IMG/VR virus record: IMGVR_UViG_3300042401_001499
Direction: 5' to 3' (one strand)
Length of the DNA: 64,000 nucleotides
From: a virus
Lineage: Duplodnaviria > Heunggongvirae > Uroviricota > Caudoviricetes
Below the pieces are notes generated by a model. That model worked only from the letters and a program-made list of their open reading frames with translations, did not search any database and had not been told where the DNA came from. Positions 5,097-43,443 of this stretch are shown here, in pieces; within the stretch, counting starts at the first letter, position 1, and each line of letters starts with the position of its first letter. Made by a program: the position numbers and the translations under genes.

Positions 5097-7045
<1,949 letters not shown>

Positions 7046-11746: not shown

Positions 11747-13189
11747 ATGAAAGAAAAATTTCGTTATGTTAAGAAAGAAGATCGTAAAAAGATACTTCTG
11801 TTATGCGATGATATTAGGATGCATTCCGGTATCGCAACGATGGCTAGAGAGATTGTTGTAGGAACATCTCATCACTTTAACTGGATCAATCTAGGAGCTG
11901 CAATTAACCACCCCGAAGCAGGAAAAGGATTTGACATCTCAGGAGAGGTTAATAGGTTAACAGGGCTAGAAGATTCAGATGTAAAGGTATTGCCTAACAA
12001 TGGTTATGGAGATGCTATGCAAATTAGAGCTTTAATTGCACAAGAAAAGCCAGATGCTATTTTTATCTTTACAGATCCAAGGTACTGGGTATGGTTATTT
12101 GAAATAGAAAGAGAGATTAGAAATGAAATTCCTTTGATGTACTTAAACATTTGGGATGACTATCCAGCTCCTCTTTATAACAAACCGTACTACGAGTCAT
12201 GTGATTTGTTAATGGCAATCTCAAAACAAACTAAAAATATTAATGAAATAGTTTTAGGAGAAGCAGTTGAGAATAAGATTTTAAAATATGTTCCTCATGG
12301 AATAAATGAAGAGCACTTCTTTCCAATGACCTCAGTAGATCAACTTGAGACTTTAGGTCAATTTAAAAAAGACTTATTTCAAGGAAAGGATATCGAATTC
12401 GTAGCATTCTTCAATTCAAGAAACATCAGAAGAAAATCTCCAGGAGATGTAATTCTATCTTATAGAATGTTCTGTGATTTAATCGGAGAAGAGAAAGCTA
12501 AGAAATGTGCTTTAGTAATGCACACACAGGCTGTAGATGAAAACGGTACAGACCTTTATGCAGTAAGAGAAGCAATTTGTGATGAGAGTTATGTAAATGT
12601 ATTCTTCTCACAAGAGAGATTAGATACTCCACAAATTAATTTACTTTATAACATAGCTGATGTAGGATTGCTTATCACTTCAAATGAAGGATGGGGATTA
12701 TCTCTAACTGAGACTATGATGGCAGGTAAAATGATCATAGCCAACGTAACAGGCGGTATGCAAGATCAAATGAGATTTACAGATGAGAATGGTGAGTGGA
12801 TTAACTTCACTCCTGACTTCCCTTCTAACCATAGAGGTACTTATAAAGAGCATGGAGAGTGGGCAGTGCCTGTCTATCCTTCAAACATCTCAATGGTAGG
12901 TTCAGTTCCAACTCCATACATCTTCGATGATAGGTGTGCACCAGAAGACGTAGCTAAAGCTTTAGAAGAGGTTTACAACATGGGGAAAGAAGAGAGAGAT
13001 AGAAGAGGATTATTAGCTAGAGAATGGGTAACATCAGATGAATCAGGAATGTCAGCACGTCAAATGTGTACAAACGTTATTGATGCAATGGATGAGACAT
13101 TTGAAAAGTTTACTCCAAGATCTAGATTTGACCTATATAAAGTAACAGACAGACCAAAAAAATATATCACACATAAATTAATATACTAG
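11747..13189 (+). CDS. Glycosyltransferase, GT-B fold (GT4-like)
   Basis: ITSNEGWGLSLTETMMAGKMIIA matches the GT4 E-x7-E region (EGFGLP..EAMA.G.PVIA). Confidence 0.6.
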   Translation: MKEKFRYVKKEDRKKILLLCDDIRMHSGIATMAREIVVGTSHHFNWINLGAAINHPEAGKGFDISGEVNRLTGLEDSDVKVLPNNGYGDAMQIRALIAQEKPDAIFIFTDPRYWVWLFEIEREIRNEIPLMYLNIWDDYPAPLYNKPYYESCDLLMAISKQTKNINEIVLGEAVENKILKYVPHGINEEHFFPMTSVDQLETLGQFKKDLFQGKDIEFVAFFNSRNIRRKSPGDVILSYRMFCDLIGEEKAKKCALVMHTQAVDENGTDLYAVREAICDESYVNVFFSQERLDTPQINLLYNIADVGLLITSNEGWGLSLTETMMAGKMIIANVTGGMQDQMRFTDENGEWINFTPDFPSNHRGTYKEHGEWAVPVYPSNISMVGSVPTPYIFDDRCAPEDVAKALEEVYNMGKEERDRRGLLAREWVTSDESGMSARQMCTNVIDAMDETFEKFTPRSRFDLYKVTDRPKKYITHKLIY

Positions 13190-13191
13190 TT

Positions 13192-14478
13192 ATGAGTAAA
13201 CCTACATTAGTAGTAAGCTGTCCAGTAGACACTTACTCAGGATATGGAGCAAGAGCAAGAGACTTTGTACAATCAATTATCGATACAGATAAGTACGAAG
13301 TAAAGATCCTATCACAAAGATGGGGAGGTACTAGATTTGGATATCTTAAAGATCATAAGAATGAATCTTTAGCCTCTAGAATTATACCACAACTAACACA
13401 ACAGCCAGACATCTGGATTCAAATTACAGTACCGAATGAATTTCAAAAGGTTGGTAAATACAATATTGGACTAACAGCAGGAATTGAAACTACAATCTGT
13501 GATCCTTCCTGGATTGAAGGATGTAACAGAATGGACTTAGTATTAGTATCAGCACAACATGCTAAGAAAGTATTTGAAGATAGTAAATTCAATATGCAAG
13601 ATTCAAATACAGGACAAGTAACAGGACAGTTAGCACTTAGTACAAAGGTAGAAGTTCTATTTGAAGGAGCTGATATAGAGAAGTATGCACCATTGTCATG
13701 GCCAGTCACATTAGATCTTTCAACTATACCGGAAATGTTCTGCTTCCTAACAGTAGGTCACTGGCTTCAGGGGTCTCTTGGAGAGGATAGAAAGAATATT
13801 GGATACACTATTAAAGCATTCTTAGAAACATTTAAGAATAAAAAAGATCAACCGGCACTTATTTTAAAAGTACAAGCAGGAGCAGGAACCTCTATCATGG
13901 ATAGGGAAGCAGTGTTGGATAAAATTGATGCAATCAGAAAGACAGTAAAGGGAAAGTTACCAAACATTTACGTACTACATGGAGAAATGTCTGATGCTGA
14001 AGTAAATGAACTATACAACCACGGTAAGGTAAAGGCGATGATCTCTTTAACAAAAGGAGAAGGATTTGGAAGACCTCTACTAGAATTTAGTTTAATAAAC
14101 AAACCAATCATAGCTTCAGGATGGTCAGGGCATATTGACTTCCTTGATAATCGATATACAAAACAAATAGGAGGAACTCTTACAAACGTACATCCATCAG
14201 CAGCTGTAGACAAAATGATCTTACAAGAAAGCCAGTGGTTTACACCAGACGATGCTCTTGTAGGAAAAGCTCTTAAGGATGTATTTGAGGATTATAAACC
14301 ATATAAGGAATTAGCCAAAAGACAGGGGTATAAGAGTAGAACTGAGTTCTCGTATGATAAGATGAGAGAGACGCTAGATACTCTTCTAACACAGTACATT
14401 CCTGAATTCCCTAAGCAAGTACAGTTAAAGTTACCTCAACTTAAGAAAATAGAACTACCAAAATTAACTAAAATATAA
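13192..14478 (+). CDS. Glycosyltransferase, GT-B fold (GT4-like)
   Basis: TKGEGFGRPLLEFSLINKPIIAS matches the GT4 signature. Confidence 0.6.
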   Translation: MSKPTLVVSCPVDTYSGYGARARDFVQSIIDTDKYEVKILSQRWGGTRFGYLKDHKNESLASRIIPQLTQQPDIWIQITVPNEFQKVGKYNIGLTAGIETTICDPSWIEGCNRMDLVLVSAQHAKKVFEDSKFNMQDSNTGQVTGQLALSTKVEVLFEGADIEKYAPLSWPVTLDLSTIPEMFCFLTVGHWLQGSLGEDRKNIGYTIKAFLETFKNKKDQPALILKVQAGAGTSIMDREAVLDKIDAIRKTVKGKLPNIYVLHGEMSDAEVNELYNHGKVKAMISLTKGEGFGRPLLEFSLINKPIIASGWSGHIDFLDNRYTKQIGGTLTNVHPSAAVDKMILQESQWFTPDDALVGKALKDVFEDYKPYKELAKRQGYKSRTEFSYDKMRETLDTLLTQYIPEFPKQVQLKLPQLKKIELPKLTKI

Positions 14479-14936
14479 TGGAAGAAAAAATGTCAATCTG
14501 TCCACATTGTGGAGGAAATGCTTGCTATGAACAAGCAGTAACAGAAGAAGTAACAACAAGCTTTTGCTTTGGATGCGGGTATTCAACTTCAACTCTAATG
14601 GTTGAAGGAGGAGATTTAGTAAACAAAACACTAGAAGCATCACCAGAACTTTATAAAGATCTTATGTTTGTAAGTGAAGATAAGAAAGTATGGTTCCCTT
14701 CTACAGTTACTCTTCCAAATAAAGGAATGGTATTCTTAGACGGAACAGCAAAAGAGAATTGGAGATGGGCAGCAGTAACCTCAGTAGAGATTCTAGAAGA
14801 AGAGAAAGCTAAATTTCCAAAAGGTCAGACAACTAAAATGGATATGAAAAATATCAAACATTTTGAGAAAGAAGATTTTATGGAAGCATTAGATGCTATC
14901 AAATTCTTTGATGTAGAAGTTGCTGAATCAGAATAA
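14478..14936 (+). CDS. Zinc-ribbon protein
   Basis: Motifs CPHCGG ... CFGCGY. Start is ATGA-coupled. Confidence 0.4.
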   Translation: MEEKMSICPHCGGNACYEQAVTEEVTTSFCFGCGYSTSTLMVEGGDLVNKTLEASPELYKDLMFVSEDKKVWFPSTVTLPNKGMVFLDGTAKENWRWAAVTSVEILEEEKAKFPKGQTTKMDMKNIKHFEKEDFMEALDAIKFFDVEVAESE

Positions 14937-14954
14937 ATTTCTTATCTTAATAGG

Positions 14955-15572
14955 ATGAAAATAAGTTATGCAATAACAGTTTGTAATGAGTTGGAGGAGA
15001 TTAAACGCTTAGTGACTTTCCTCCTTCTTACTAAACGTAAAGAAGACGAAGTAGTTATTTTATTTGATGAGAAGAACGGAACAGATGAAGTATTTGATTA
15101 CATAGAGTCTCAAGTTTATCACTGTGAAGTATTCTGTGAAAAGTTTGAAGGACACTTTGCTGATTGGAAAAATGAACTTACATCACACTGTACAGGAAAG
15201 TACATCTTTCAAATAGATGCAGACGAACTTCCAACTGAAGACCTTATTGTAAACCTTCCGTACATCTTAGAAGTTAATCAAGATGTAGATGTATTTCTTG
15301 TACCAAGAATTAATACAGTAGAAGGACTAACACTTCAACATATTCAGAAATGGGGATGGAATGTAAATGATAAAGGTTGGGTAAACTTCCCAGACTACCA
15401 ATGGAGAATTTATAGAAATGATCCTAGTATAAAATGGAAGAACAGAGTACACGAAGTACTAGAAGGATTTAAAACATCCACACTACTTCCAGCAGAGGAG
15501 ATGTATTGCCTATATCATCCAAAGACAATCGACAGACAAGAGAAACAGAATAATTATTACGATACATTATAA
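14955..15572 (+). CDS. Glycosyltransferase family 2-like (GT-A)
   Basis: N-terminal YAITVCNE typical of GT2, with DxD-like acidic motifs. Confidence 0.4.
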   Translation: MKISYAITVCNELEEIKRLVTFLLLTKRKEDEVVILFDEKNGTDEVFDYIESQVYHCEVFCEKFEGHFADWKNELTSHCTGKYIFQIDADELPTEDLIVNLPYILEVNQDVDVFLVPRINTVEGLTLQHIQKWGWNVNDKGWVNFPDYQWRIYRNDPSIKWKNRVHEVLEGFKTSTLLPAEEMYCLYHPKTIDRQEKQNNYYDTL

Positions 15573-15579
15573 ATTAGTT

Positions 15580-16890
15580 ATGGATAGTATTTTAAATTTA
15601 GTACAAGAGTACATTACAAAGAAGGATAGCGAGAAGAAATGGGTAGCAGGAGAAGACTTAGTTCAATATGCTGGACCTTACTTCGATGGTCAAGAAGCTC
15701 AAGCGGTTGTTAGGACTATGCTTGAAGGATGGTTAGTTCTAGGAAAAGAAGGAGCAATGTTTGAAAGACGTTTCCCTAAAAAATTAGGGCAGAAGACTGG
15801 AGTCATTGTTAATAGCGGTTCAAGTGCTAATTTACTAATGATGTTAGCCTTAACATCTAAGAGAGGAATGAACTTACCAAAAGGTACAAAAGTAATTACT
15901 CCAATAGCAGGATTCCCTGCAACACTTAGTCCTACTATTCAAGTAGGCTTTACACCAATCTTTGTTGATATTGAATTAGAATCTCTTAATCTAGACTTAG
16001 ATCAAGTAGAGCAAGCATGCATTGATCATCCGGATGCAAAGATAATTACATTTGCTCACGTATTAGGTAATCCACCTAACATGGATCGATTAATGGAAAT
16101 TGTAAACAAATATAATTTAATTCTATTAGAAGACTGTTGTGATGCTTTAGGAACGACATACGATGGTAAGATGTTAGGATCATTTGGTAAAATGTCTTCA
16201 TGCTCATTCTATCCAGCACATCACATTACAATGGGTGAAGGAGGATTTGTAGCTTGTGGAGATGCTCATACAGAAAAGATACTAAGAAGTTTTAGAGACT
16301 GGGGTAGAGGGTGTTTCTGTCAAGGTAAAGCAAATGCTTTAGAATGTGGTTCATGTGGTATTAGATTTAGTAATTGGTTACCAAGTCTTCCTAATGAGAT
16401 CTTTGATCACAAATATACTTATGAAGAGATTGGATACAATTTAAAACCTACAGAGTTACAAGCAGCAATGGGTAATGTTCAGTTAGGTAAGTTAGAAGAG
16501 ATTGGAGTACTGAGAAGAAGAAATCATAAAGCAATTGTTGACATCTTTAAGAAGTATGAAGATAAATTTATCCTTCCTAAAGCTACAGATAAATCAGATC
16601 CAGATTGGTTTGCAGTAGCATTAACATTAAGAGACGGAGTAGGATTTACAAGATCTGAATTCTGTCAATACTTAGAAGCAAATAAGATTCAAACAAGACC
16701 TTACTTTGCAGGTAACATTATGTTACAGCCAGGCTATTCACATTTAATTGATTCAAAAGAAGTTATTGAGAAATATCCAGTATCAAGAAAAGTAACAACA
16801 GATACTTTCTTCTTAGGATGCTCACCAATCATTACATTGGAACAAATAGAATACATTGGAACAATTGTAGATAAATTCTTCAGTAAATAG
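15580..16890 (+). CDS. ddhC: E1-type PMP-dependent, Fe-S NDP-4-keto-6-deoxyhexose 3-dehydrase (DdhC/AscC/RfbH family)
   Basis: DegT/AHBA-synthase fold. The Schiff-base Lys is replaced by His (SFYPAHHITMGEGG), the E1/ColD hallmark. The Cys spacing C-x57-C-x1-C-x8-C (CC ... CFCQGKANALEC) matches the E1 [2Fe-2S] site. Confidence 0.8.
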   Translation: MDSILNLVQEYITKKDSEKKWVAGEDLVQYAGPYFDGQEAQAVVRTMLEGWLVLGKEGAMFERRFPKKLGQKTGVIVNSGSSANLLMMLALTSKRGMNLPKGTKVITPIAGFPATLSPTIQVGFTPIFVDIELESLNLDLDQVEQACIDHPDAKIITFAHVLGNPPNMDRLMEIVNKYNLILLEDCCDALGTTYDGKMLGSFGKMSSCSFYPAHHITMGEGGFVACGDAHTEKILRSFRDWGRGCFCQGKANALECGSCGIRFSNWLPSLPNEIFDHKYTYEEIGYNLKPTELQAAMGNVQLGKLEEIGVLRRRNHKAIVDIFKKYEDKFILPKATDKSDPDWFAVALTLRDGVGFTRSEFCQYLEANKIQTRPYFAGNIMLQPGYSHLIDSKEVIEKYPVSRKVTTDTFFLGCSPIITLEQIEYIGTIVDKFFSK

Positions 16891-16891
16891 T

Positions 16892-17737
16892 ATGAAAAAA
16901 TTTGTAATAAGTACACATGGGTTTGATATGGGAATAGGAGGCTTAAAGGTTTTACATAAACTTTGTCACCTTCTAAATGAAAATGGATACGACGCATATC
17001 TAATACCAGTAAATTTTAATGAACCATTCGGCATGTATGAGGGGTATAATACCAAAATGATTACACAAGACATACTAGATAATCTGGAAGAGGCCATAGT
17101 AGTGTACCCTGAAAGCTGGAACGGTAACTACCTCAATGCACCAAACGTAGTTAGGTGGATGATAGGACCTCCTACCAAGGATGTTGCTGCTACATGGTCT
17201 AGCAAGGACCTATGGTTTTGGTATATTCCTTTTTATAAGTCTTCTGAGTTTACTAAGCATTTAGAAAATCAACTGTATATAGGAGAGCAGCATAGGGATA
17301 TCTTTTTTAATAGAAACTTAGAAAGGACTATTACTAGTTGGACTTTAAGAAAAGCTCAAGGGTTAGTACAAGAAGTAAATTACAAACACCCTAAGGATAG
17401 TTTGTTTCTTCCGTATCATGCAGCAGGAGATTTAGCCTCTCTTTCTGATATATTTAATAGATCTAAAGCATTCTACTGCTACGATACATATACCTACTTA
17501 ACAATACAGAGCCTACTATGCGGTACAGAGGCCATAGTGCTTCCAAATAGTTGGACCGAGAAAGAACATTTTCTAAAAGGATTTGCACTAAGCAAGTATG
17601 TAGCCTATGGAATAGACGATCTACCCAGAGCCAGAAGTATCCGTAATGAATTTTTAGAAGAAGTAGAAGAGATTGAAACATTAACAATAAAACAGTTACA
17701 TGAATTTACAGAAAAATGCTCTACCTACTTTAGCTGA
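16892..17737 (+). CDS. Hypothetical protein in the sugar island
   Basis: 281-aa ORF with no clear motif. Confidence 0.35.
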   Translation: MKKFVISTHGFDMGIGGLKVLHKLCHLLNENGYDAYLIPVNFNEPFGMYEGYNTKMITQDILDNLEEAIVVYPESWNGNYLNAPNVVRWMIGPPTKDVAATWSSKDLWFWYIPFYKSSEFTKHLENQLYIGEQHRDIFFNRNLERTITSWTLRKAQGLVQEVNYKHPKDSLFLPYHAAGDLASLSDIFNRSKAFYCYDTYTYLTIQSLLCGTEAIVLPNSWTEKEHFLKGFALSKYVAYGIDDLPRARSIRNEFLEEVEEIETLTIKQLHEFTEKCSTYFS

Positions 17738-18728
17738 GTTTAGCTTCTTGATCGTAACTGCAGCAAGAGATGAGAATAGACTAAGAGAAGCCTACAGGTC
17801 AATAAGGCTACAATACCCGGAAAATGAAATAGTAGTAGTATATGATAACACTGGTGTTTTATTACTAAATAGAGAAGATATAAACCTACTGGAGATTCCA
17901 ACTTCGGAAAGAGTGTATGTTAGTAGGGGATATAATATAGCATTAAAAAACTGCTCTAAGCCATATTTTGTATTTCTACATGATGATACTTTTATTGCTC
18001 CTAACTTTCTAGAAAACATATTACCCCATATAAGCGAAAGTCAGTTTTGTAACTTCACTGCAATAGAGCCTCCAGTATTTGGCAACATCGATTCAGCAAC
18101 AGCACCAATTAGGGATTTTGGTAGAAGCTTAGATACGTTTGTAGTAGAGAACTTTAATAAATATACAGAAAAGTATGTACAGACCTTAGAACACAGAACA
18201 GTAGAATCTCCTTTTGGAGGATTTTTTATGGTGGGAAGTACTAAGAGTATATTAAGTATAGGAGGATTTGATGAAACCTTTCAACCCTATTTCTTTGAAG
18301 ACAGTGACTTAATGGTACGGCTACACCTAGCAAACTTTAGGTTTATACAGGTACTAGATAGTTTAGTATATCATATGGTAAGCCTAACCTCTAGAGGAAC
18401 TCCGGAGAGTAGGGTAGCTGAGAGTATCACTCATAAGTTGTTTGTTAAGAAATGGAAGGTAGAATTCAATTACTTCAGACAGTATACAATGTCAGCAGGT
18501 ATTCCATATAAGAAGATACCAGTCTTAATTAAACACACAAACTGTAGTGAATCATTACAAGAGTACCTATCCTTAATAAGTGAACCTAGTACAGTAGAGC
18601 TAATAGTAGACGGACTGCAAATATCTCAAGAAGATGTAGGATATATACAATCATTACCGTATATTATACAGGATACAATACTATCAGGTAGCTACCAACT
18701 GGGAAGTATGCAACTAAATTTTAACTAA
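17700..18728 (+). CDS. Glycosyltransferase family 2-like
   Basis: VVVYDN ... LHDDTFIAP (DxD) GT-A pattern. Confidence 0.4.
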   Translation: MNLQKNALPTLAEFSFLIVTAARDENRLREAYRSIRLQYPENEIVVVYDNTGVLLLNREDINLLEIPTSERVYVSRGYNIALKNCSKPYFVFLHDDTFIAPNFLENILPHISESQFCNFTAIEPPVFGNIDSATAPIRDFGRSLDTFVVENFNKYTEKYVQTLEHRTVESPFGGFFMVGSTKSILSIGGFDETFQPYFFEDSDLMVRLHLANFRFIQVLDSLVYHMVSLTSRGTPESRVAESITHKLFVKKWKVEFNYFRQYTMSAGIPYKKIPVLIKHTNCSESLQEYLSLISEPSTVELIVDGLQISQEDVGYIQSLPYIIQDTILSGSYQLGSMQLNFN

Positions 18729-18755
18729 ATAACATAAAAAGATAATTTTATAAAG

Positions 18756-19712
18756 ATGAAAAAAGTAGTTTACGTTACCGGTTGTTTAGGATTTATTGGA
18801 TCCTACGTAACAAGGAAGTGTTTAGATAGAGGATGGTACGTTAAGGGAGTTGATAAGAAGACCTATGCAGCTAATAAAGACTTATTAAAAGAGTTTAAAG
18901 AGTATGAAAACTTTTCATTTGTAGATTGTGATATAAATGATTTGAAGTTCCTATATGACTGTGACTATATAATTAATACAGCAGCTGAGACTCATGTAGG
19001 AAACTCTATAATGGATTCGGATGTATTTGTACATTCAAATGTAAATGGAGTTCACAATCTACTAGAGTTAATAAAAAATCATAGAGGAGAGAATGCTACT
19101 AAGCCTACACTCCTTCACTTTAGTACAGACGAAGTTTATGGAGATATCGAAGAAGGAGAGCATATCGAGACTGACATACTTAAACCATCTAATCCATACT
19201 CAGCTACTAAAGCTGCAGCAGATATGCTAATAACAGCTTGGGCAAGAACTTACAAACTTCCTTATATTATAATAAGGCCAACAAACAATTACGGAATAGG
19301 GCAGTATGTAGAGAAGTTAATACCTAAAGCCTGTAAGTACTTACGACTTGGTAAAAAGATTCCTCTACACAATAACGGTACTCCAATTAGAAACTGGCTC
19401 CATGCCCAGGATACAGCTGAGGCTGTAATTAGAATTATTGAATCAGGAGTGCAGAATGAAATCTATAATATTTGTGGAGGATTTGAGCAAACTAATTTGG
19501 ATACTATTAAAAAAGTTCTTATATTGTACTATAAGGATTTAGGAGTAGACATAGAAGCTAACTTAGACCTAAAATGTAATAGACAAGGACAAGATGTTAG
19601 GTATGCCTTAAATGATGATAAATTAAGAGCATTAGGATGGAAACCTACAATTGACTTTGACTTGGAATTAAAAAATGTTGTAGAATATTATAGAGAAAAA
19701 TTCATATGGTAA
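18756..19712 (+). CDS. rfbB: NDP-hexose 4,6-dehydratase (RfbB-like extended SDR)
   Basis: Rossmann motif VTGCLGFIGS. FSTDEVYG and catalytic PYSATKAAADM (YxxxK), followed by NNYGIGQYVEKLIP, closely match dTDP/CDP-glucose 4,6-dehydratases. Confidence 0.75.
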   Translation: MKKVVYVTGCLGFIGSYVTRKCLDRGWYVKGVDKKTYAANKDLLKEFKEYENFSFVDCDINDLKFLYDCDYIINTAAETHVGNSIMDSDVFVHSNVNGVHNLLELIKNHRGENATKPTLLHFSTDEVYGDIEEGEHIETDILKPSNPYSATKAAADMLITAWARTYKLPYIIIRPTNNYGIGQYVEKLIPKACKYLRLGKKIPLHNNGTPIRNWLHAQDTAEAVIRIIESGVQNEIYNICGGFEQTNLDTIKKVLILYYKDLGVDIEANLDLKCNRQGQDVRYALNDDKLRALGWKPTIDFDLELKNVVEYYREKFIW

Positions 19713-21460
19713 AAGTAAGTGATGTAATCGTTCAATACCTTAAAGCTAATAAGATAGAGATTGTATTTGGAATAATTGGCTCAGCTAATTCTCACATATT
19801 CAATTCGATATTAGAAGAAGGAAGTATCAAATTGGTATCGGTACATCATGAACAAGCCGCTGTAATGGCTATGGGAGCTTATTACCGTTCAACCGGAAAG
19901 ATGGCTGTTGCATTAGTAACAGCAGGAGGAGGAGCATCAAATGCTTCAACAGGAATTCTTTCCAACTGGGCTGACTCCATTCCAGGAATAACTATCTCAG
20001 GACAAGAACAATCCTACTACTTAGCTGAATATAAAGATATGAGAATGTTTGGAGTACAAGGTTATGATGCAACTAAAGCATATGAAAACTGTACTAAAAT
20101 GTCTTATGTACTTACAGAAAATACCTTACATTCAATAATGCCTTTTGCATTTGCTTTAACACAAGAAGGTAGACCAGGGCCAGTATTCCTGGAAGTACCT
20201 TTCGATGTTCAAAGTAAAATGATAGAAGAAGTAGAAATAAAAGTAACTCCAATTGTAGAAATATACCCTGAGACTTCTTCTGATACAGACTATATCCTCT
20301 CTGCACTTTCACAAGCAGAGCGACCAGTTATACTAGGAGGTCACGGCGTTAAGCTAGCTAAAGCAGAAGAATTATTTAAACAATTTGTAGGAGACTATAA
20401 CATACCAACAGTATTAAGCTGGTCAGCAGTAGACTTACTTGATGATAATGATCCTAACTATTTCGGAAGACCAGGAGTACAGGGTCAGAGAGCAGCTAAC
20501 TTTATAGTACAGAACTCTGATTTACTAATTGTATTAGGAAGCAGACTATCATTACTTCAGACAGGCTACAAAAGAGAAGACTTTGCTCCATATGCTAATA
20601 TCATTCATGTTGATGTAGATGATACAGAAATTAATAAGTTCAACGGAAAGAATATAAAAGCAGATGTAGGAGAATTACTTACAAGTTTAAATTCTAAATG
20701 GAAAGCTGAGATTGAAATAGAGGAATGGATACAATACTGTAATCAAATTAAAGAAAAGTATCCTTTAGTAATGCCTGAGCATTTAGCAGACCCTACCAAT
20801 TCATATACATTTATTGATAAATTCTCACAAAAAGTATCGGACAATTATACAATCGTTACTGATATGGGAACAGCTTTATTAAGTGGATTCTATGGATGGA
20901 GAATTAAACCTAACCAAAAGATGTTTACCTCTCTAGGATTAGGAGAGATGGGATATGGATTAGCAGCAGCAGTTGGAGCTGGATTTGGAGAAAGACCAGT
21001 GATGTGTTTAAATTGTGATGGAGGTATGATGATGAACATACAAGAGTTACAAACAATTAAGACACATAACCTTCCAGTAAAGATTATCATATTCAACAAT
21101 GACGGATACTTAATGATCAAACATACTCAGAATATGTTATTTAAAGGAGCACGTACTTGTGTTGACAAAGAGACAGGAGTAACACTTCCTGATTATAAAA
21201 AAGTAGCACATGCATTTGATTTTGAATACTTCACAGAAGATAACGTAGATGACTTCTTAGCATTTGAAGGCCAGGCTATCATGGAAGTATTTATGGATCC
21301 AAATCAAGAATTTATTCCTAAGGTAAGAGGAATGAAGCTAGAAGATAGTACAATCCAAGCAGGACTATTAGAGGAGATGTCTCCACTTCTTCCGTTAGAA
21401 GAAATAGAACAAGCAATGGTTGCAGGAATTAACCAAAGAAGTAAAACAGTTGTAAGATGA
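19706..21460 (+). CDS. ThDP-dependent enzyme of the acetolactate-synthase family (YerE-like sugar C-branching enzyme candidate)
   Basis: 584 aa. ThDP motif GDG-x~26-NN (CDGGMMMN ... IIFNNDGY). Located inside a deoxysugar cluster. Confidence 0.7.
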   Translation: MVKVSDVIVQYLKANKIEIVFGIIGSANSHIFNSILEEGSIKLVSVHHEQAAVMAMGAYYRSTGKMAVALVTAGGGASNASTGILSNWADSIPGITISGQEQSYYLAEYKDMRMFGVQGYDATKAYENCTKMSYVLTENTLHSIMPFAFALTQEGRPGPVFLEVPFDVQSKMIEEVEIKVTPIVEIYPETSSDTDYILSALSQAERPVILGGHGVKLAKAEELFKQFVGDYNIPTVLSWSAVDLLDDNDPNYFGRPGVQGQRAANFIVQNSDLLIVLGSRLSLLQTGYKREDFAPYANIIHVDVDDTEINKFNGKNIKADVGELLTSLNSKWKAEIEIEEWIQYCNQIKEKYPLVMPEHLADPTNSYTFIDKFSQKVSDNYTIVTDMGTALLSGFYGWRIKPNQKMFTSLGLGEMGYGLAAAVGAGFGERPVMCLNCDGGMMMNIQELQTIKTHNLPVKIIIFNNDGYLMIKHTQNMLFKGARTCVDKETGVTLPDYKKVAHAFDFEYFTEDNVDDFLAFEGQAIMEVFMDPNQEFIPKVRGMKLEDSTIQAGLLEEMSPLLPLEEIEQAMVAGINQRSKTVVR

Positions 21461-22314
21461 AAATAAAAGTAGCAATTATTGGTACAGGTAATATCGGAAC
21501 AGATTTATTACTCAAAGCCTTAAAGACAGACTTCATGGATGTAGTAGCATTCGTAGGTCGTAGATTAGATTCAGATGGAATGCTAACAGCTAAGAAATAC
21601 AATGTACTGATATCAGATCAAGGTATTCAATACTTTATTGACAATCCAAAGTGTTGTGATGTAGTTTACGATTGTACCTCAGCAGCAGATGCTATTGAAC
21701 ATGCTAAGATATTTAAAGACCAGGAAATAAAAGTAATTGACCTAACACCAGCCAAGGTAGGAGATATGTGCGTACCAGATGTTAACTCTGAGATTATATT
21801 GACAGATGATAATGTAAATATGATTACTTGCGGAGGACAAGCTTCAATGCCTATGCTTCATTTACTATCAAAAGAGTGCATAGGATTAGAATACATCGAA
21901 GTAGTATCACAGATTGCATCTAAGAGTGCAGGAATGGCTACAAGAATAAACGTAGACAATTACATTCAAACAACTCAGAAAGCTATAACAAAGTTTACTG
22001 GTTGTTCAAATAACAAAGTAATACTAAACCTTAACCCTGCTGAACCCTGTGTTGATATGCAGACAACTATCTTTATCAAAGCAAAGAAAGTTAATTTTGA
22101 AAATCTAACAGAGAAGGTCTTAGAAAAAATTGAAGAGTTAAGAACATACATTCCATATTACGAAATGGTGCTTCCTCCAACTATGAACGATAATGGTGTA
22201 GTTGTAATGAGTATTAAAGTAAGAGGTACAGGAGACTATCTTCCAGCCTATGCTGGTAACCTGGATATTATTAACTGTGCAGCAATTAAAGTAACAGAAA
22301 GATTGGTAAAATGA
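21457..22314 (+). CDS. Acetaldehyde dehydrogenase (acetylating), DmpF/MhpF family
   Basis: N-terminus MKIKVAIIGTGNIGTDLLLK closely matches DmpF/MhpF. ~290 aa. Confidence 0.75.
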   Translation: MKIKVAIIGTGNIGTDLLLKALKTDFMDVVAFVGRRLDSDGMLTAKKYNVLISDQGIQYFIDNPKCCDVVYDCTSAADAIEHAKIFKDQEIKVIDLTPAKVGDMCVPDVNSEIILTDDNVNMITCGGQASMPMLHLLSKECIGLEYIEVVSQIASKSAGMATRINVDNYIQTTQKAITKFTGCSNNKVILNLNPAEPCVDMQTTIFIKAKKVNFENLTEKVLEKIEELRTYIPYYEMVLPPTMNDNGVVVMSIKVRGTGDYLPAYAGNLDIINCAAIKVTERLVK

Positions 22315-23309
22315 GAAAAGTAATCATAACAGATTCAAGTCTTAGAGATGGAAATCATAGTGTTAAGCATACTATAAGTTTAGATAGTATAGCAAGGTAT
22401 TGTCAATTTGCTGATAGAGCTGGCGTACCAATTGTAGAGGTAGGTCACGGAAATGGATTAGCAGCATCCTCTTTACTTGTAGGTAAGTCTGTTAATACAG
22501 ATGAAGAGATGCTAACAACTGCTAGAAAGAATCTAAAGAATTCTAAACTAGGAATTCATATGATACCAGGACTAGCAACACTAGAACATACTAGGAGAGC
22601 AATTGATCTAGGAGTAGATGTAGTGAGAGTGGCAACACATTGTACAGAAGCAACACTATCTAAATCTCATATTGAAGCACTAGCAAAAGCAAATGTAGAA
22701 GTGTTCGGAGTATTGATGATGAGTGCTTTAATTACTCCTCTAGAATTATTAGAGCAAGCTAAAATAATGGAAGGGTATGGAGCTAAGGCTATTATTATAA
22801 TGGACTCTACAGGAACATATCTACCATTTGATGTACAGCAGAGAATTGCCCTACTGACAAGCAATCTAAATATTGCAGTAGGATTTCATGCTCATAACAA
22901 CTTAGGATGTGCAGTAGCCAATTCCCTAACAGCAGTAGAATTTGGAGCAGACTATATTGACGGATGTATTAGAGGATTTGGAGCCGGAGCAGGAAATGCA
23001 CCACTAGAAATACTTATACCAGTATTAGAGCAAACAGGCTTTCAAGTAGGAATAAACTTCCAGGAGACGATCAAAGAAGCTGATAATGTAATGAACTACT
23101 TAGTTCCATCAGCTCCTATCACAACTCCAATTAACATACTAACCGGACTTAAGAAACTATTCTCAGGATTTGAAAAGCCTATCGTAAGTGCTTCTAAGTT
23201 GTATGGAATAGAATATTCATCTCTTATCTTTGAATTAGGTAATAGAAAGTTGGTAGCCGGGCAAGAAGATCTTATCTTAGAGGTAGCACAGAAGCTAAAG
23301 AAGAGATAG
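22311..23309 (+). CDS. 4-hydroxy-2-oxovalerate aldolase-like (DmpG/MhpE DRE-TIM family)
   Basis: SLRDGNHSVKH and VEVGHGNGL motifs of the HOA aldolase family. Overlaps and pairs with the DmpF homolog. Confidence 0.75.
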   Translation: MRKVIITDSSLRDGNHSVKHTISLDSIARYCQFADRAGVPIVEVGHGNGLAASSLLVGKSVNTDEEMLTTARKNLKNSKLGIHMIPGLATLEHTRRAIDLGVDVVRVATHCTEATLSKSHIEALAKANVEVFGVLMMSALITPLELLEQAKIMEGYGAKAIIIMDSTGTYLPFDVQQRIALLTSNLNIAVGFHAHNNLGCAVANSLTAVEFGADYIDGCIRGFGAGAGNAPLEILIPVLEQTGFQVGINFQETIKEADNVMNYLVPSAPITTPINILTGLKKLFSGFEKPIVSASKLYGIEYSSLIFELGNRKLVAGQEDLILEVAQKLKKR

Positions 23310-24221
23310 ATGAACATATTAATTACAGGAGGGAATGGATTCTTAGGATCTAATATTGTTAGAAAGCTGTTAAAGGAAGGACATAGTGTCTACTTATTTT
23401 CAAACAATACAAATAACATAGAGGACATACTTCCTCAAGTTTTATTTGACTACAGTAGTACTAATTCACTACCTATGTTTAAGAAGAAAATAGAGACATT
23501 TTCACCAGACATAGTAATACATTGTGGATGGAGTGGAGGAAATAGTTACGCAGATACTAATAGTATGGATCAGTTTTATGAAAATGTAGATCCAAGTATC
23601 TCTCTACTACAACTACTAAGTAAGCTCAAGAAGAAGCCTAAGTTTGTAGGTTTTGGAAGTTTTGCAGAGTATGGAGAGATGTTCAATCCAGTAAGTGAAA
23701 CAGTCCAAGAAGTTCCTACAAACCTATATGGACTATCAAAGTATACTTTTAAGAAGTATAGTGAAATGATATGCAACCAACACAGTATAGAATGGGTATG
23801 GATAAGGCCCTGCTACGTTTACGGACCAGGAGATGTAAGCACAAGACTTCTTCCTAGTATAATTAAGAAGTTCTTAAGGAATGAAGCAGTAATACTTGAT
23901 GAGTGTACTTCTACTGTAGATTATATTTATATAGATGATTTTGTTAATTCAATTTATTTTCTTATATTAACAAAACATACAGGAGTGTACAACATATGCT
24001 CAGGAAAACAATACAAGATAAGAGATATAGTTGAGCAAGTTCATAAACAAATTGAGAGTAGTAGTACTATTGAATTTAGTGCTAATCTAAAAAGAACCTC
24101 TACATACTCTTATGTATGTGGGGACAGACGAAAGATTGATGCTGTTGCAAATATTCCAACTCAGATATCTTTAAATGAAGGATTAGTTAAAACAATAACA
24201 TATTATAAAGTAAGAAAATGA
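23310..24221 (+). CDS. NAD(P)-dependent SDR epimerase/reductase (sugar ketoreductase candidate)
   Basis: ILITGGNGFLGSNIV Rossmann motif and a YxxxK-type core (YGLSK). Confidence 0.6.
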   Translation: MNILITGGNGFLGSNIVRKLLKEGHSVYLFSNNTNNIEDILPQVLFDYSSTNSLPMFKKKIETFSPDIVIHCGWSGGNSYADTNSMDQFYENVDPSISLLQLLSKLKKKPKFVGFGSFAEYGEMFNPVSETVQEVPTNLYGLSKYTFKKYSEMICNQHSIEWVWIRPCYVYGPGDVSTRLLPSIIKKFLRNEAVILDECTSTVDYIYIDDFVNSIYFLILTKHTGVYNICSGKQYKIRDIVEQVHKQIESSSTIEFSANLKRTSTYSYVCGDRRKIDAVANIPTQISLNEGLVKTITYYKVRK

Positions 24222-24859
24222 AAAACGAAGTTGTAGTAAAAGAAGGAGGCTGGATTTGGCCTAAGAAGGATGAGAGAAGTTGGCAAGGTCAAATAAAACA
24301 AAAGGAACTAGCTCAATACATACTTCCCTATGTAGTGAAGAATGATGTAATGATACAAGCAGGTGGTAATTGTGGATTCATTCTAAGTACCTTTGTTCCC
24401 TACTTTAACAACATCTATACATTTGAACCAGATCCAATAAACTTTTATTGCTTGAATCAGAATGTTACAGCACCAAGTGTTATTAAGATGCAATGTTGCT
24501 TAGGAAAAGAAAGTACACCAGTAGCTGTACAACATCTACAAAGAGGTATAGGAGAGGGAATAGACATAGGGGGAGTACATGTTAGTGGAGTAGGGTTTAC
24601 TCCTACTATTGTTATCGACAAATTAAACCTACAGGCATGTGACTTAATTCAACTAGACATAGAAGGGTATGAACTCAATGCACTACTGGGTGCAGTAGAG
24701 ACTATTAAGAAATATAAACCTGTACTATGTATAGAGTTCTGTGAAAACTGGTTAAATAGGTATGAAGCTACGTCAGATAGTGTTGAAACTCTTTTAGTTG
24801 AATTAGGATACAAACATGTAGAATCGTACCAAGCAGATAGAATTTACATAACACAATAG
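24218..24859 (+). CDS. FkbM-family methyltransferase
   Basis: IQAGGNCGF ... YTFEPDPINFYCLNQN matches the FkbM domain signature. Confidence 0.55.
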   Translation: MKNEVVVKEGGWIWPKKDERSWQGQIKQKELAQYILPYVVKNDVMIQAGGNCGFILSTFVPYFNNIYTFEPDPINFYCLNQNVTAPSVIKMQCCLGKESTPVAVQHLQRGIGEGIDIGGVHVSGVGFTPTIVIDKLNLQACDLIQLDIEGYELNALLGAVETIKKYKPVLCIEFCENWLNRYEATSDSVETLLVELGYKHVESYQADRIYITQ

Positions 24860-24877
24860 GTTACATATATACATACA

Positions 24878-26155
24878 ATGGAAAATTCAATTAGTTTTTG
24901 CATCAATACAGCAGTAGATGAACTACCTTATTTAAAACTACTAATGAAGTCGTTAAAAGAAAATCTTAAGTACGACCACCACGAGGTAATTGTGTTTGTT
25001 GATTCTGATAATCAAAAAACCTTCGAATGGCTGACTACTCAAAAGTTAGAGTTTAAGAATCTAAAAATACTTAAAAACATACTCCCAGTATGTTATGGCC
25101 CTATTAGGAATATAAATGAAATGTTTAAATTTGCTTCTCATGAAATAGTTTCTTACCTACAGTCTGATATGGTTGTTTCTAGAAACTATGATGAGTATCT
25201 CTTAAAGCATATTAAACCTAATACGATACTATCTAGCACTAGAATTGAACCACCACTACATGGACCAGGTCCTGAGAAGCATACTGTGAACTTTGGACTA
25301 ACTCCCTCTGAGTTTGATTATGAGGGGTTTTTAAACTACTGTGACATATGTAGAGAAGATAAAACAACAAGTTACTATTTTGCACCATTTACTTTATATA
25401 GAGAGATTTGGAACACTATAGGAGGGCAAGACAACACCTTTAGACGGTCAAGAGATGACTCTGATATTTTAAATAGGTTTATACTTTCAGGAGTAGAGAT
25501 TGTTCAAACATGGGAAGCACTGGTATACCATTTTACTTGTACTTCTAGTAGAGGACCGGGCTGGCATGAGCCAAGTAATACAAAGGCACAGGAAAAGTTA
25601 CAACTCCAAGCAAGAGCAGATAAGGTAGAACTTACTAGAATATTTAGAAAGTGGGGAGAATTTAGCCATGGACATCCAACACCGTACTACTATAATATAG
25701 TCTCAGAAATTAATATAGATATAGATATAGGTAACTTAGAGTTATTTAAAAACGTTGAGATGTTTTTTATAAAAAACTACATAACTTCTAAAAAACTATA
25801 TAACGAGTTTATAAATGAGAATGAACATCTATATGCTAATATACTTTACAAGTACTCTCAAGAACAGTGGGAGGAGTACAAGTACATGTGCAACATAGAG
25901 AGATTAGAGGATAGAGTTTGTATAGGAGAACCAGAAGGAGATGTGGTAGTTTCATTTAACCTTAGTAGTATTAACCAAAATACATTTAATAATGTACTAA
26001 GTAAGTTACAACACATAATACACGAAGCAGAACCAGGTGATTATGAATTCGAAGGATTTACTTTCTCAATAAAGAACAAAGAGAATATTATAGAGACTAA
26101 ACTTAAAGTAAACAATCCTGATATAAAACCAGAACATCTATATAAGGTATACTAG
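24878..26155 (+). CDS. Glycosyltransferase family 2-like, with C-terminal extension
   Basis: VIVFVDSDN acidic motif within a GT-A-like N-terminal half. Confidence 0.4.
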   Translation: MENSISFCINTAVDELPYLKLLMKSLKENLKYDHHEVIVFVDSDNQKTFEWLTTQKLEFKNLKILKNILPVCYGPIRNINEMFKFASHEIVSYLQSDMVVSRNYDEYLLKHIKPNTILSSTRIEPPLHGPGPEKHTVNFGLTPSEFDYEGFLNYCDICREDKTTSYYFAPFTLYREIWNTIGGQDNTFRRSRDDSDILNRFILSGVEIVQTWEALVYHFTCTSSRGPGWHEPSNTKAQEKLQLQARADKVELTRIFRKWGEFSHGHPTPYYYNIVSEINIDIDIGNLELFKNVEMFFIKNYITSKKLYNEFINENEHLYANILYKYSQEQWEEYKYMCNIERLEDRVCIGEPEGDVVVSFNLSSINQNTFNNVLSKLQHIIHEAEPGDYEFEGFTFSIKNKENIIETKLKVNNPDIKPEHLYKVY

Positions 26156-37580: not shown

Positions 37581-37587
37581 AAAAATA

Positions 37588-37624
37588 GTTGCCTCTTCGG
37601 AGGCAATTTACTATCTTTAGGTAT
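37588..37624 (+). promoter_or_regulatory. Conserved phage promoter, copy 12, with embedded UUCG-tetraloop hairpin
   Basis: GTTGCCTCTTCGGAGGC ... TATCTTTAGGTATCATTAATTAAAACA. GCCTC-TTCG-GAGGC at 37591-37604. Confidence 0.55.
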
Positions 37625-37647
37625 CATTAATTAAAACAATATAAGTT

Positions 37648-37746
37648 ATGGAAGATGCAAATAAATTTTACGAGTGGATGTTAAAGATTAAAAGTATTCA
37701 TTTGGCTGACAATAATAAGATGGCTAAGGCTTTCGAAAAGTTTTCT
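37648..37746 (+). CDS. Tiny ORF (32 aa) behind a promoter copy
   Basis: Only ORF between this promoter and the tRNA-like elements. May be non-functional. Confidence 0.2.
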
Positions 37747-37761
37747 GAGAAATAAATAATA

Positions 37762-37864
37762 TTTGTTGTGTGGCGAAATTGGTATACGCTAAATCACCTC
37801 AAGTAGAATAGCCGGTAGACGTGGGTGACGTGCAAAGGCGTGAGGGTTCGAGTCCCTTCACAAC
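37762..37864 (+). other. tRNA-like element 1 (acceptor, D-arm and T-arm recognisable; 71-nt central segment with no canonical anticodon arm)
   Basis: TGTTGTG ... GCG-AAATTGGTATA-CGC ... GAGGG-TTCGAGT-CCCTT-CACAACA-T. The 7-bp acceptor pairs perfectly and the T-loop is canonical GTTCGAGTC. Confidence 0.35.
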
Positions 37865-37914
37865 ATCAAAATAATTAGCTTAGTCTGCATTAATTATTTG
37901 GATCTGCAGGTCCA

Positions 37915-37975
37915 GGAGAGGTCTGGTTAAAGTGGGCAGTGCCAACACAGGAAGTTCGAATCTTCCCTCTCCACA
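37915..37975 (+). other. tRNA-like element 2 (T-arm GGAAG-TTCGAAT-CTTCC plus 6-7-bp acceptor; about 61 nt, too short for a canonical tRNA)
   Basis: AGGAGAG ... CTG-GTTAAAGTGGG-CAG ... GGAAGTTCGAATCTTCC-CTCTCCA-C. Confidence 0.3.
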
Positions 37976-38003
37976 AAATAAATTAAAAATAAATAATAAA
38001 ATA

Positions 38004-38040
38004 GTTGTTAGATTAAATTAATGTTCGTATATTTAGGTAT
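38004..38040 (+). promoter_or_regulatory. Conserved phage promoter, copy 13
   Basis: Consensus copy. Confidence 0.6.
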
Positions 38041-38063
38041 CAATAATTAAAACATATAACATT

Positions 38064-42810: not shown

Positions 42811-43443
42811 ATGTATAAAGACAAAATAAGTATGGGAGAGGCCATGTCTCTTGAATTATTAGGAGAGATTACAATTGTTGATGCTTCGCCAGAGTCTGCC
42901 ACCCCTTTTGGAGAAAACGGAAAACAGTGGAAAGAAGCATTTATAAAACTACAATCCAAACACAGGCATATATCCCCAGATAAACTCCTTAACTTCCTTT
43001 CGGCAAAATACCTTATAGAGGTATCTGAAGGCATAGTGGATACAGATAGTAATACTTATTCCTGGAGATATTTCCATGGTATAGAGAATAGACAAATAAA
43101 AGAGAAATCTAAAGATAATATCGAGTATGTCTATATTCTGGTTAATCCGGGTTATCCTTCCTTGGTTAAGATAGGAATGACCATTAAGGAAGTTCATAGC
43201 AGAGTCACGTCAATTAACGCTACTGCGACAGTTGAGGAGTGGGTTCCAAAATTTGCTCTTCCGGTAGAGAAAGGTACTGCCTTTTATGTAGAACAGGCTG
43301 TTCACACTTTCTTTGCCCCTGTAAGGGTTTCTTCCGATCTTGGTTCTTCAAGAGAGTTTTTTACCCTAGATCCATTAACGGCTTTTGATAAGGTTCGTGA
43401 GGTAGGGGCAGTGTTTGCTATAGGAAATCCTATTACTTATTAA
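42811..43443 (+). CDS. T5orf172 / GIY-YIG-like domain protein
   Basis: YVYILVNPGYPSLVKIGMT ... R ... EWV ... matches the T5orf172 (MUG113) signature. Confidence 0.5.
   Translation: MYKDKISMGEAMSLELLGEITIVDASPESATPFGENGKQWKEAFIKLQSKHRHISPDKLLNFLSAKYLIEVSEGIVDTDSNTYSWRYFHGIENRQIKEKSKDNIEYVYILVNPGYPSLVKIGMTIKEVHSRVTSINATATVEEWVPKFALPVEKGTAFYVEQAVHTFFAPVRVSSDLGSSREFFTLDPLTAFDKVREVGAVFAIGNPITY

Follow-up and report, generated by a model that had tools for sequence, protein, structure and literature searches.

Two conserved tRNA-like elements without anticodon loops in a relative of Flavobacterium myophages

What are two tRNA-like elements doing in a phage that carries no canonical tRNA? The question is raised by a 64,000-nucleotide stretch of the IMG/VR virus record IMGVR_UViG_3300042401_001499 (Caudoviricetes), analysed at its full length and called the window below. 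The window phage is related to the Flavobacterium myophages vB_FspM_immuto, to which it is about 83% identical in patches. Both elements lie on the plus strand within the region 37587-38060: element 1 (37764-37867) is a tRNA-Leu-type frame around a 52-nucleotide (nt) body that is not an anticodon arm, and element 2 (37915-37974) is a minimal tRNA-like RNA of 58 nt. A preliminary description, made from the sequence alone, had read the locus as two aberrant tRNA-like elements between small promoter-driven genes, and all features that it described are present. ARAGORN, run over the whole 64 kb in default tRNA mode and in transfer-messenger RNA (tmRNA) mode, finds no canonical tRNA in the window, a scan of the whole window at the Rfam gathering thresholds has no match, and no canonical cloverleaf with other boundaries is returned for either element. 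The two are genuine, conserved elements, and neither functions as a tRNA. What the preliminary description had missed is that they are members of phage RNA families, that relatives have such elements in tRNA clusters and that the body of element 1 is conserved in an exchanged frame.

Element 1 has the outer parts of a tRNA. All seven pairs of its acceptor stem, TGTTGTG (37764-37770) with CACAACA (37859-37865), are Watson-Crick pairs; U8 and G9 lead from the acceptor to the D-arm GCG-AAATTGGTATA-CGC (37773-37789), and the T-arm GAGGG-TTCGAGT-CCCTT (37842-37858), of which the first pair is a G.U, precedes the 3' acceptor strand. The 3' end consists of U73 (37866) and C74 (37867), followed by AAAA, and the nucleotides of the tRNA elbow (U8, A14, G18-G19 and the T-loop UUCGAGU) are in place. 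The perfect acceptor stem, the D-arm, the T-arm and the 71 nt that separate the 5' acceptor strand from the T-stem were all part of the preliminary description and each is found in the sequence; only the start, given there as 37762, was 2 nt too early. The further claim that no anticodon arm can be folded is right for the loop and wrong for the stem: element 1 has no arm with a 7-nt loop, U33 and a purine at position 37, and a covarying 5-bp stem that closes a 25-nt loop stands in its place.

In a 501-nt scan with relaxed filters, element 1 matches the Rfam tRNA family (RF00005) with 31.7 bits (E = 8.7e-5; the gathering score is 29), in an alignment that skips 44 nt at the position of the anticodon arm; canonical tRNAs that neighbour such elements in relatives reach 50-75 bits. 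Both the D-arm and the variable/T-arm region match annotated phage tRNA-Leu genes. When both strands of the 64 kb were searched for an acceptor plus T-arm frame, element 1 was the sole match. Still, shuffling gives a chance rate of 0.23 (7-bp acceptor) or 0.37 (6-bp acceptor) for such a bare frame per 64-kb window and both strands. As a bare frame is not rare by chance, the significance must rest on comparative data: it is carried by the D-arm, the Rfam score, the match of element 2 to its own model and above all the covarying homologues.

The body of element 1 (37790-37841) recurs in four other viral contigs, namely L229, L045/L076, L228 and L230 (L numbers are the labels of the related contigs and loci compared with the window), and all four copies sit inside a frame with the acceptor AGTCAGG. 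The window body differs from that of L229 at 2 of 52 positions, while four of the seven acceptor pairs have changed on both sides, as have two of the five T-stem pairs, with one more T-stem pair changed on one side. Neutral decay cannot produce such a pattern, in which the body is conserved and the acceptor and T-stem are replaced. The body stem (TCACC, 37794-37798, with GGTGA, 37824-37828) is found in three compensatory forms: TCACC/GGTGA, TTACC/GGTAA and TCATC/GATGA. In alignment A2, which holds the homologues of element 1, 100 of 100 pair cells are paired, compared to at most 43% in slid controls, and eight pairs change on both sides, two of them in the body stem.

Within the body loop, the 3' part GAATAGCCGGTAGACGTGG (37806-37824) is invariant in all five homologues, and a conserved linker, CGTGCAAAGGCGT (37829-37841), connects the body stem to the T-arm. 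RNAalifold suggests an alternative pairing in the body, AGCC/GGCU plus ACGU/ACGU, which never varies and can therefore not be tested by covariation. Linker GGC (37837-37839) and loop GCC (37811-37813) are a candidate pseudoknot pairing: judged from topology, AGCC/GGCU could coexist with the covarying stem as an H-type pseudoknot. Within the window, no antisense target for the invariant body loop was found.

Element 1 is also part of a wider superfamily. A pattern consisting of its D-arm, a gap of 40-70 nt and the T-loop matched 92 viral contigs with 68 distinct elements; that these share the D-arm and T-loop is thus required by the search. Each of the 68 closes a 7-bp acceptor stem, very often AGTCAGG/CCTGACT, around a middle of 38-66 nt, and these middles are mutually unrelated; the discriminator is an A in 55 of 68. 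ARAGORN misses 84 of 102 superfamily elements. Clustering of all non-canonical frames in the sampled set of uncultured phages places about 172 elements in about 140 unrelated body clusters, and a second body cluster (L034/L045/L082) likewise shows compensatory change. Another body family (L008, L017 and L042, with GGATGTA or GAAGGAA acceptors) has complementary loops, GGUCAA and UUGAC, which are kept across three variants and suggest a loop-loop kissing interaction inside the body. The full AGTCAGG frame is absent from cultured phages, though its D-arm matches tRNA-Leu genes in many of them. In cellular genomes it is found only on five short, AT-rich, phage-like contigs of metagenome-assembled genomes (two labelled Flavobacterium and one Chitinophagaceae, among others), each time with a non-canonical body.

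The acceptor of element 1 itself, together with its 'TC-AAA' trailer, is shared by ten distinct elements of 70-118 nt with six different T-stems and unrelated bodies. A canonical anticodon loop is present in none of the ten: the loop at this position is a GNRA tetraloop in L102, has 5 nt in L104, 6 nt in L098 and L101, 8 nt in L099 and more than 20 nt in the window and L107, and the 7-nt loop of L115 lacks U33.

Two ideas of the preliminary description were an intron-containing tRNA and split tRNAs. Element 1 would then be a tRNA with a short intron in the anticodon loop, or the two elements would be halves that are joined to one decoding tRNA. The intron mode of ARAGORN does call element 1 a 'tRNA-Ser(aga)' with an 18-nt intron. 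However, the resulting anticodon stem is poor, with a.g and t+g pairs, position 37 is a C, and the covarying stem closes the entire 25-nt loop. Applied to 64 family members, the same mode returns about 40 different anticodons scattered over the family, which indicates that the intron calls fit noise and excludes a tRNA that is spliced consistently. In bacteria, the introns of tRNAs belong to group I and measure at least 200 nt; the insert here would be 18-25 nt without a group I core, and Rfam finds no group I intron (no Intron_gpI match). The two-halves version conflicts with the fact that each element closes its own acceptor stem. We therefore regard an interrupted or split tRNA as very improbable.

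Element 2 is built differently. Its acceptor stem, GGAGAG (37915-37920) with CTCTCC (37967-37972), has 6 bp and leaves G7 (37921) unpaired. A D-loop-like linker without a D-stem (37922-37931), a bulged hairpin GTG-GGC-AGT-GCC-AA-CAC (37932-37948) and the T-arm GGAAG-TTCGAAT-CTTCC (37950-37966) follow, and the 3' end is formed by A73 (37973) and C74 (37974), with AAAA thereafter. Alignment A1, made of 18 element 2 sequences, has a common fold: the acceptor of 6 bp is followed by a linker of 11 nt, in which U8 is nearly invariant and one G of a GG dinucleotide invariant, a 6-bp bulged hairpin with a loop of 3-4 nt, one A, and a 5-bp T-stem with the loop UUCGANU. Of its pair cells 95.7% are paired, compared to at most 59% in every slid control; both partners have changed in 10 of the 17 pairs, and the covariation score is not reached by any of 500 shuffles. 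The window copy scores 73.9 bits against a covariance model that includes this copy. No finder calls element 2 a tRNA or tmRNA, and Rfam has no match to it even at E up to 10.

The perfect T-arm noted in the preliminary description is thus confirmed, while the acceptor, given there as 6-7 bp, is fixed at 6 bp, because the fifth T-stem pair covaries (CG, AU, GC, GU). This covariation excludes a seventh acceptor pair between G7 and the last T-stem base; a seventh pair between positions -1 and 73 is likewise excluded, as in 21 of 23 copies A73 faces a purine (A or G) at -1. A conventional D-arm, CTG-GTTAAAGTGGG-CAG, was also considered and rejected: it is broken in L107, where CAG is replaced by CGA, and the alignment backs GTG-GGC...GCC-AA-CAC. 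Finally, a tmRNA or two-piece tmRNA was dismissed, as ARAGORN and Rfam have no such match and element 2 has A3-U70 rather than G3.U70.

Copies of element 2 were sought in viral contigs and metagenomes, first by the T-arm and acceptor sequence and then by the hairpin GGATCTGCAGGTCC (in the window GGATC-TGCA-GGTCC, 37900-37913), which ends 1 nt before element 2. The metagenome scan with the hairpin returned at least 119 stretches, about 100 of which were chance matches in GC-rich coding DNA and were filtered out; what is left are at least 29 loci with at least 20 distinct elements of 51-58 nt. The hairpin stands 1 nt upstream of every retrieved copy, in 23 distinct contexts, a statement that is circular insofar as the hairpin served as search anchor. 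L098 and L099 have an element 2 that is 100% identical to the window copy, with different flanks. The unit of hairpin and element 2 is absent from 185,579 bacterial and archaeal species, each represented by one genome. Positions -7 to -1 upstream of the hairpin often resemble TATAAT or TATAAC (T at -7 in 17 and A at -3 in 19 of 23), a possible sign of a separate promoter in part of the contigs; the window copy, with ATTATTT upstream of the hairpin, does not follow this -10-like tendency.

The preliminary description had also proposed degenerate tRNAs or integration-site relics: could the elements be decaying tRNA pseudogenes or relics of an attachment site, with no function? Such an origin would fit the lack of a canonical tRNA in the window, the unremarkable folding energy of the element 1 body and the absence of the elements from the closest cultured relatives. 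It does not fit the identical element 2 in three contigs with unrelated flanks, nor the compensatory changes in both elements, which include their bodies, with acceptor, D-arm and T-arm intact. Relics of integration would be 3' fragments that match a host tRNA, whereas the elements are whole frames, and both the unit of hairpin and element 2 and the AGTCAGG frame are absent from host chromosomes (the TGTTGTG frame was not scanned); a tRNA fragment of a phage attachment site (attP) was not found. The open reading frames (ORFs) of at least 170 amino acids (aa) in the window include no integrase, and also no CCA-adding enzyme, RNA ligase or synthetase. To decay or an integration relic we give hardly any credence.

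In the relatives L105/L224, L108, L111/L163/L220 and L127, among others, the hairpin and element 2 are located inside genuine tRNA clusters, next to recurrent non-canonical frames of 77, 96-100 and 120 nt. These frames are of three types (77 nt, RTTAGG...; 96-100 nt, AATCATG...; 120 nt, GGTTCYTG...), none of which is called by ARAGORN, and are found in L105 (reverse strand, 4601-4696 and 4703-4823), L127 (reverse strand, 3198-3297), L106 (reverse strand, 96-172) and L209 (617-736 and 781-857). All 72 distinct canonical tRNAs of the module-bearing contigs have C74; 43 of the 72 have the trailer CAA and nine have an encoded CCA. With U-CAAA and A-CAAA, elements 1 and 2 have the same N73-CAAA trailer as the canonical tRNAs of their lineage, and this is the best available evidence that both 3' ends mature as those of real tRNAs do. 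When the contigs with the wider element 1 family were searched with the covariance model of element 2, no relatives were found, which indicates that the two elements are independent modules.

We favour the explanation, with a probability of roughly 0.55, that both elements are conserved small RNA genes with the outer frame of a tRNA, which are excised by tRNA-processing enzymes and do not decode. The frame would comprise the acceptor stem, the T-arm and an elbow-forming D-loop, and codon reading would be impossible. Both RNAs would be transcribed early, together with a 35-aa ORF, from a promoter-like motif at 37587-37640; host RNase P would cut the 5' ends, and the 3' ends would be trimmed and completed to CCA at N73-C74. 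The frame may provide precise ends and stability, and the inner part may be the working moiety. In element 1 this would be the 52-nt body, with its 5-bp stem, its 25-nt loop with the invariant 19-nt segment and a possible pseudoknot, and the body would have moved between two different frames in evolution. Element 2 resembles a bare tRNA elbow with the acceptor helix and is thus probably a tRNA mimic that binds a tRNA-recognising protein.

Several points speak against this explanation. The steps of the pathway, namely transcription, cleavage by RNase P and the addition of CCA, are inferred from the DNA. Element 2 is almost without cargo, so that a division into frame and body describes it poorly, and outside the phage group of the window the two elements do not co-occur. 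The acceptor sequence is invariant within a lineage while the T-stems covary: a pure role in processing and stability is therefore insufficient, and a sequence-specific partner at the acceptor end is hinted at. The body of element 1 has just five homologues, with body covariation resting on two pairs, and its folding energy is unremarkable (z = +0.2). In 55 kb of related loci, no Rfam family was found inside the bodies, and none of the bodies could be linked to a partner protein, an antisense target or a known RNA motif.

A more far-reaching proposal, which taken as a whole we consider possible rather than probable, is that Bacteroidota phages use a few lineage-specific frames derived from tRNA-Leu as a natural 'tRNA scaffold'. 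These frames would present a very large and fast-turning-over set of structured RNA effectors, for example decoys or aptamers against host defence or translation factors, and recombination within the conserved D-arm and T-loop would carry bodies from one frame to another. Element 2 would stand apart from these as a constant cofactor that mimics a tRNA, and the window phage would have lost its decoding tRNAs and kept two effectors.

The invariant acceptors also lend themselves to another explanation, in which what matters is the frame itself: the elements would be tRNA mimics with a CCA tail that act through the surface of acceptor, T-arm and elbow. They could be decoys or competitive substrates for host enzymes that recognise a tRNA independently of its anticodon, for instance toxins that modify the acceptor end, or non-decoding substrates that can be charged by synthetases of the leucyl (LeuRS) or seryl (SerRS) type. 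Leucine and serine identity in bacteria is independent of the anticodon. The Leu-type D-arm is strongly conserved, the discriminator of the wider family is mostly an A, C74 is invariant, the acceptor does not vary within a lineage that has covarying T-stems, and element 2 is essentially a bare frame. Moreover, the linker of element 2, GGUUAAAG-CC, and its acceptor resemble tRNA-Ser; among 372 canonical tRNA calls, the acceptor GGAGAG/GGAGGG was seen solely in tRNA-Ser, in just two cases. This likeness to serine tRNAs is a weak lead from sequence comparison: the covariance model of element 2 has no isotype preference among its weak matches, with tRNA-Ser accounting for 2 of 13. The discriminators do not fit either, as element 1 has U73 where leucine identity needs A73 and element 2 has A73 where G73 is typical of serine. 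Above all, a conserved, covarying body that outlasts a swap of its frame is unexpected if the frame alone matters. We judge action through the acceptor end to be rather unlikely. The decoy suggested in the preliminary description is affected in part: the lack of a mimicked anticodon loop makes a decoy for anticodon nucleases improbable, while other kinds of decoy are compatible with the data.

The order of the locus suggests a third possibility, namely that the folds are processing sites. The promoter-like motif AGTTGCC...TATCTTTAGGTATCATTAATTAAAAC (37587-37640) is found before neighbouring genes and in related contigs too. It overlaps a terminator-like hairpin (37587-37608), in which the -33 part of the motif is embedded, and is likely, as judged from the sequence, to be the start of a transcript with the small ORF and both RNAs. 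This 35-aa ORF (MEDANKFYEWMLKIKSIHLADN...; 37648-37755) ends 8 nt before element 1 and has no match to a Pfam family; L098, L099 and L102 have homologues of it immediately before their element-1-type RNAs, and in L094 the ORF is found without the RNAs. An AT-rich hairpin, formed by AATAATTA (37870-37877) and TAATTATT (37891-37898), fills the spacer between the two elements, and L100, L102 and L104 have AT hairpins with other loops at the same place. In contigs with the TGTTGTG acceptor, the module begins in many cases with the 35-aa ORF; one element-1-type RNA or two of them, a spacer (the AT hairpin or a different conserved one), the GC hairpin, element 2 and the next promoter follow in this order.

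In such an arrangement, the folds could be RNase P and RNase Z sites that set the ends of the flanking mRNAs, with the excised RNAs as by-products. The stop codon of the conserved small ORF stands 8 nt before element 1, an arrangement shared by L098, L099 and L102; the next promoter motif comes about 30 nt after the end of element 2, and plant mitochondrial t-elements are a documented precedent (PMC1920247). But punctuation of transcripts needs neither a conserved body with compensatory changes nor a 100%-conserved hairpin in element 2. Elements of relatives stand among tRNA genes without an adjacent ORF, and the flanking genes can do without them: L094-L097 and the cultured immuto phages, which are syntenic via a flanking 258-aa gene and served solely as negative controls, keep the flanking genes and lack both elements. 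A mere role in punctuation is quite unlikely, and we retain non-decoding small RNA genes in a tRNA frame as the preferred explanation.

The short genes of the region 37587-38060 each have the same promoter-like motif in front, GTTGC...TATCTTTAGGTATCA...TAATTAAAAC, which we take to resemble the -33 TTG / -7 TAnnTTTG promoter type of Bacteroidota. In a more general form, AAAAGTTGC/T, about 20 nt and TAT(C/A)TTTAGGTATCA(A/T)TAATTAAAAC, it precedes many small plus-strand genes; sites are 37587-37640 and 38000-38056 in the window, and others are found in L098, L099, L102 and L228. The junction before the element-1-type RNAs is AATAAGTT|TGTTGTG in L098, L099, L101, L104 and L107 and ATAATATT|TGTTGTG in the window (37756-37770). 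It resembles the gene-start context of these phages, AATAAGTT|ATG, which suggests that genes and RNA cassettes are swapped at a common junction. Relatives have two further stretches that are absent from the window: a conserved spacer, GCAAGGGCAGGTTAAACCCTAGGATTGCAATGGTCCTAGC, before the hairpin and a 3' element, ATTATCC...GGCTGGTGAAGCTCCAGAAGGATAAT, after element 2. Both are intergenic and apparently structured (L098, reverse strand, about 5424-5465 and 5556-5650; also L099, L101 and L117; L100 and L102).

Elsewhere in the window, a protein with a T5orf172/MUG113 domain (GIY-YIG-like and often associated with homing endonucleases) is encoded at 42811-43443, about 5 kb downstream of the RNA module. 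A preQ0 reductase of the QueF type with QueF_N and QueF domains (1433-2359) follows just downstream of a protein with a formyltransferase domain (377-904); the phage-encoded QueF suggests 7-deazaguanine chemistry on DNA or tRNA. A chaperonin of the GroEL type (Cpn60_TCP1, E = 1e-69) is found at 5405-7045. Positions 11747-26155 are occupied by a long sugar-biosynthesis block, unusual as phage cargo, with several GT1 and GT2 glycosyltransferases, a DegT aminotransferase, epimerases/dehydratases, a thiamine pyrophosphate (TPP) enzyme, a DmpFG-like pair of acetaldehyde dehydrogenase and aldolase, and an FkbM methyltransferase.

How do the two elements compare to known RNAs? The closest parallel is the pair of species 1 and 2 RNAs of phage T4 (rnaC and rnaD), small stable RNAs inside a phage tRNA cluster that are not tRNAs. 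To our knowledge, the function of these T4 RNAs is still unknown. The rnaC RNA ends in a T-arm (CCGGG-TTCGAAT-CCCGG) followed by an acceptor-like strand, and an architecture and tRNA-cluster context like those of T4 are found in the relatives, the window itself having no canonical tRNA. The T4 RNAs are, however, 119-139 nt long and single genes of one phage group; they differ from the RNAs described here, which include a frame with a Leu-type D-arm and a perfect 7-bp acceptor, a family of bodies that has moved from frame to frame and a superfamily of very high diversity. Blastn of positions 37740-38000 (261 nt) against 50,697 phage records found only short T-arm or D-arm matches to tRNA genes, with no T4-group record, and hence no homology to rnaC or rnaD, among the matches listed.

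Type II tRNAs are similar in other respects: tRNA-Leu shares with element 1 the geometry of acceptor, D-arm and T-arm, U8, G18-G19 and the T-loop, and element 2 resembles tRNA-Ser in its acceptor and in the 3' half of its D-loop. Unlike them, neither element has a 7-nt anticodon loop, element 2 lacks a D-stem and has a 6-bp acceptor, and the discriminators U73 and A73 depart from leucine and serine identity, respectively. The tRNA-like domain of tmRNA resembles element 2 in having an acceptor helix, a stemless D-loop, a helix that leaves the core and a T-arm, but element 2 has no mRNA-like region, no pseudoknots and no G3.U70.

Engineered tRNA scaffolds, mascRNA, the tRNA-like RNAs of murine gammaherpesvirus 68 and the plant mitochondrial t-elements are cases in which a tRNA-shaped frame stabilises a non-decoding RNA or releases it via RNase P and RNase Z. 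The engineered scaffolds carry their cargo in place of the anticodon arm, which is the site of the body in element 1. The natural modules of this kind are however eukaryotic or organellar and the scaffold is synthetic, and none is a phage family with exchangeable frames and hundreds of bodies. YrlA, the bacterial Y RNA-like RNA, is a non-coding RNA with a tRNA-like elbow that is found in bacteria and some phages. Its 5' and 3' ends form the Ro-binding stem and its 'acceptor' is closed by a loop, whereas the ends of the window elements form the acceptor stem; neither element has a YrlA-type match in the Rfam scans. A survey from 2023 mentions unspecified tRNA-like candidates in IMG/VR in generic terms (PMC10690425), and in the literature we found no description of either RNA family or of the exchange of frames and bodies.

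The tRNA clusters of phages have so far been read almost wholly as a supply of codons or as an escape from anticodon nucleases. In uncultured phages of the Flavobacterium type, a considerable part of the 'tRNA-like' genes is non-decoding and nevertheless conserved and structurally constrained. The window phage keeps two such non-decoding genes without a single real tRNA, which points to a role outside translation, and the exchanged frames, the roughly 140 unrelated bodies and the lineage-invariant acceptor fit a modular RNA expression system that is missed by tRNA finders and Rfam. Should the RNAs prove stable in vivo, the puzzle of the T4 species 1 and 2 RNAs, now 50 years old, would gain a much broader comparative basis, and the RNAs would provide concrete candidates for RNA-based manipulation of the host and be a natural counterpart of the tRNA scaffolds used in RNA engineering.

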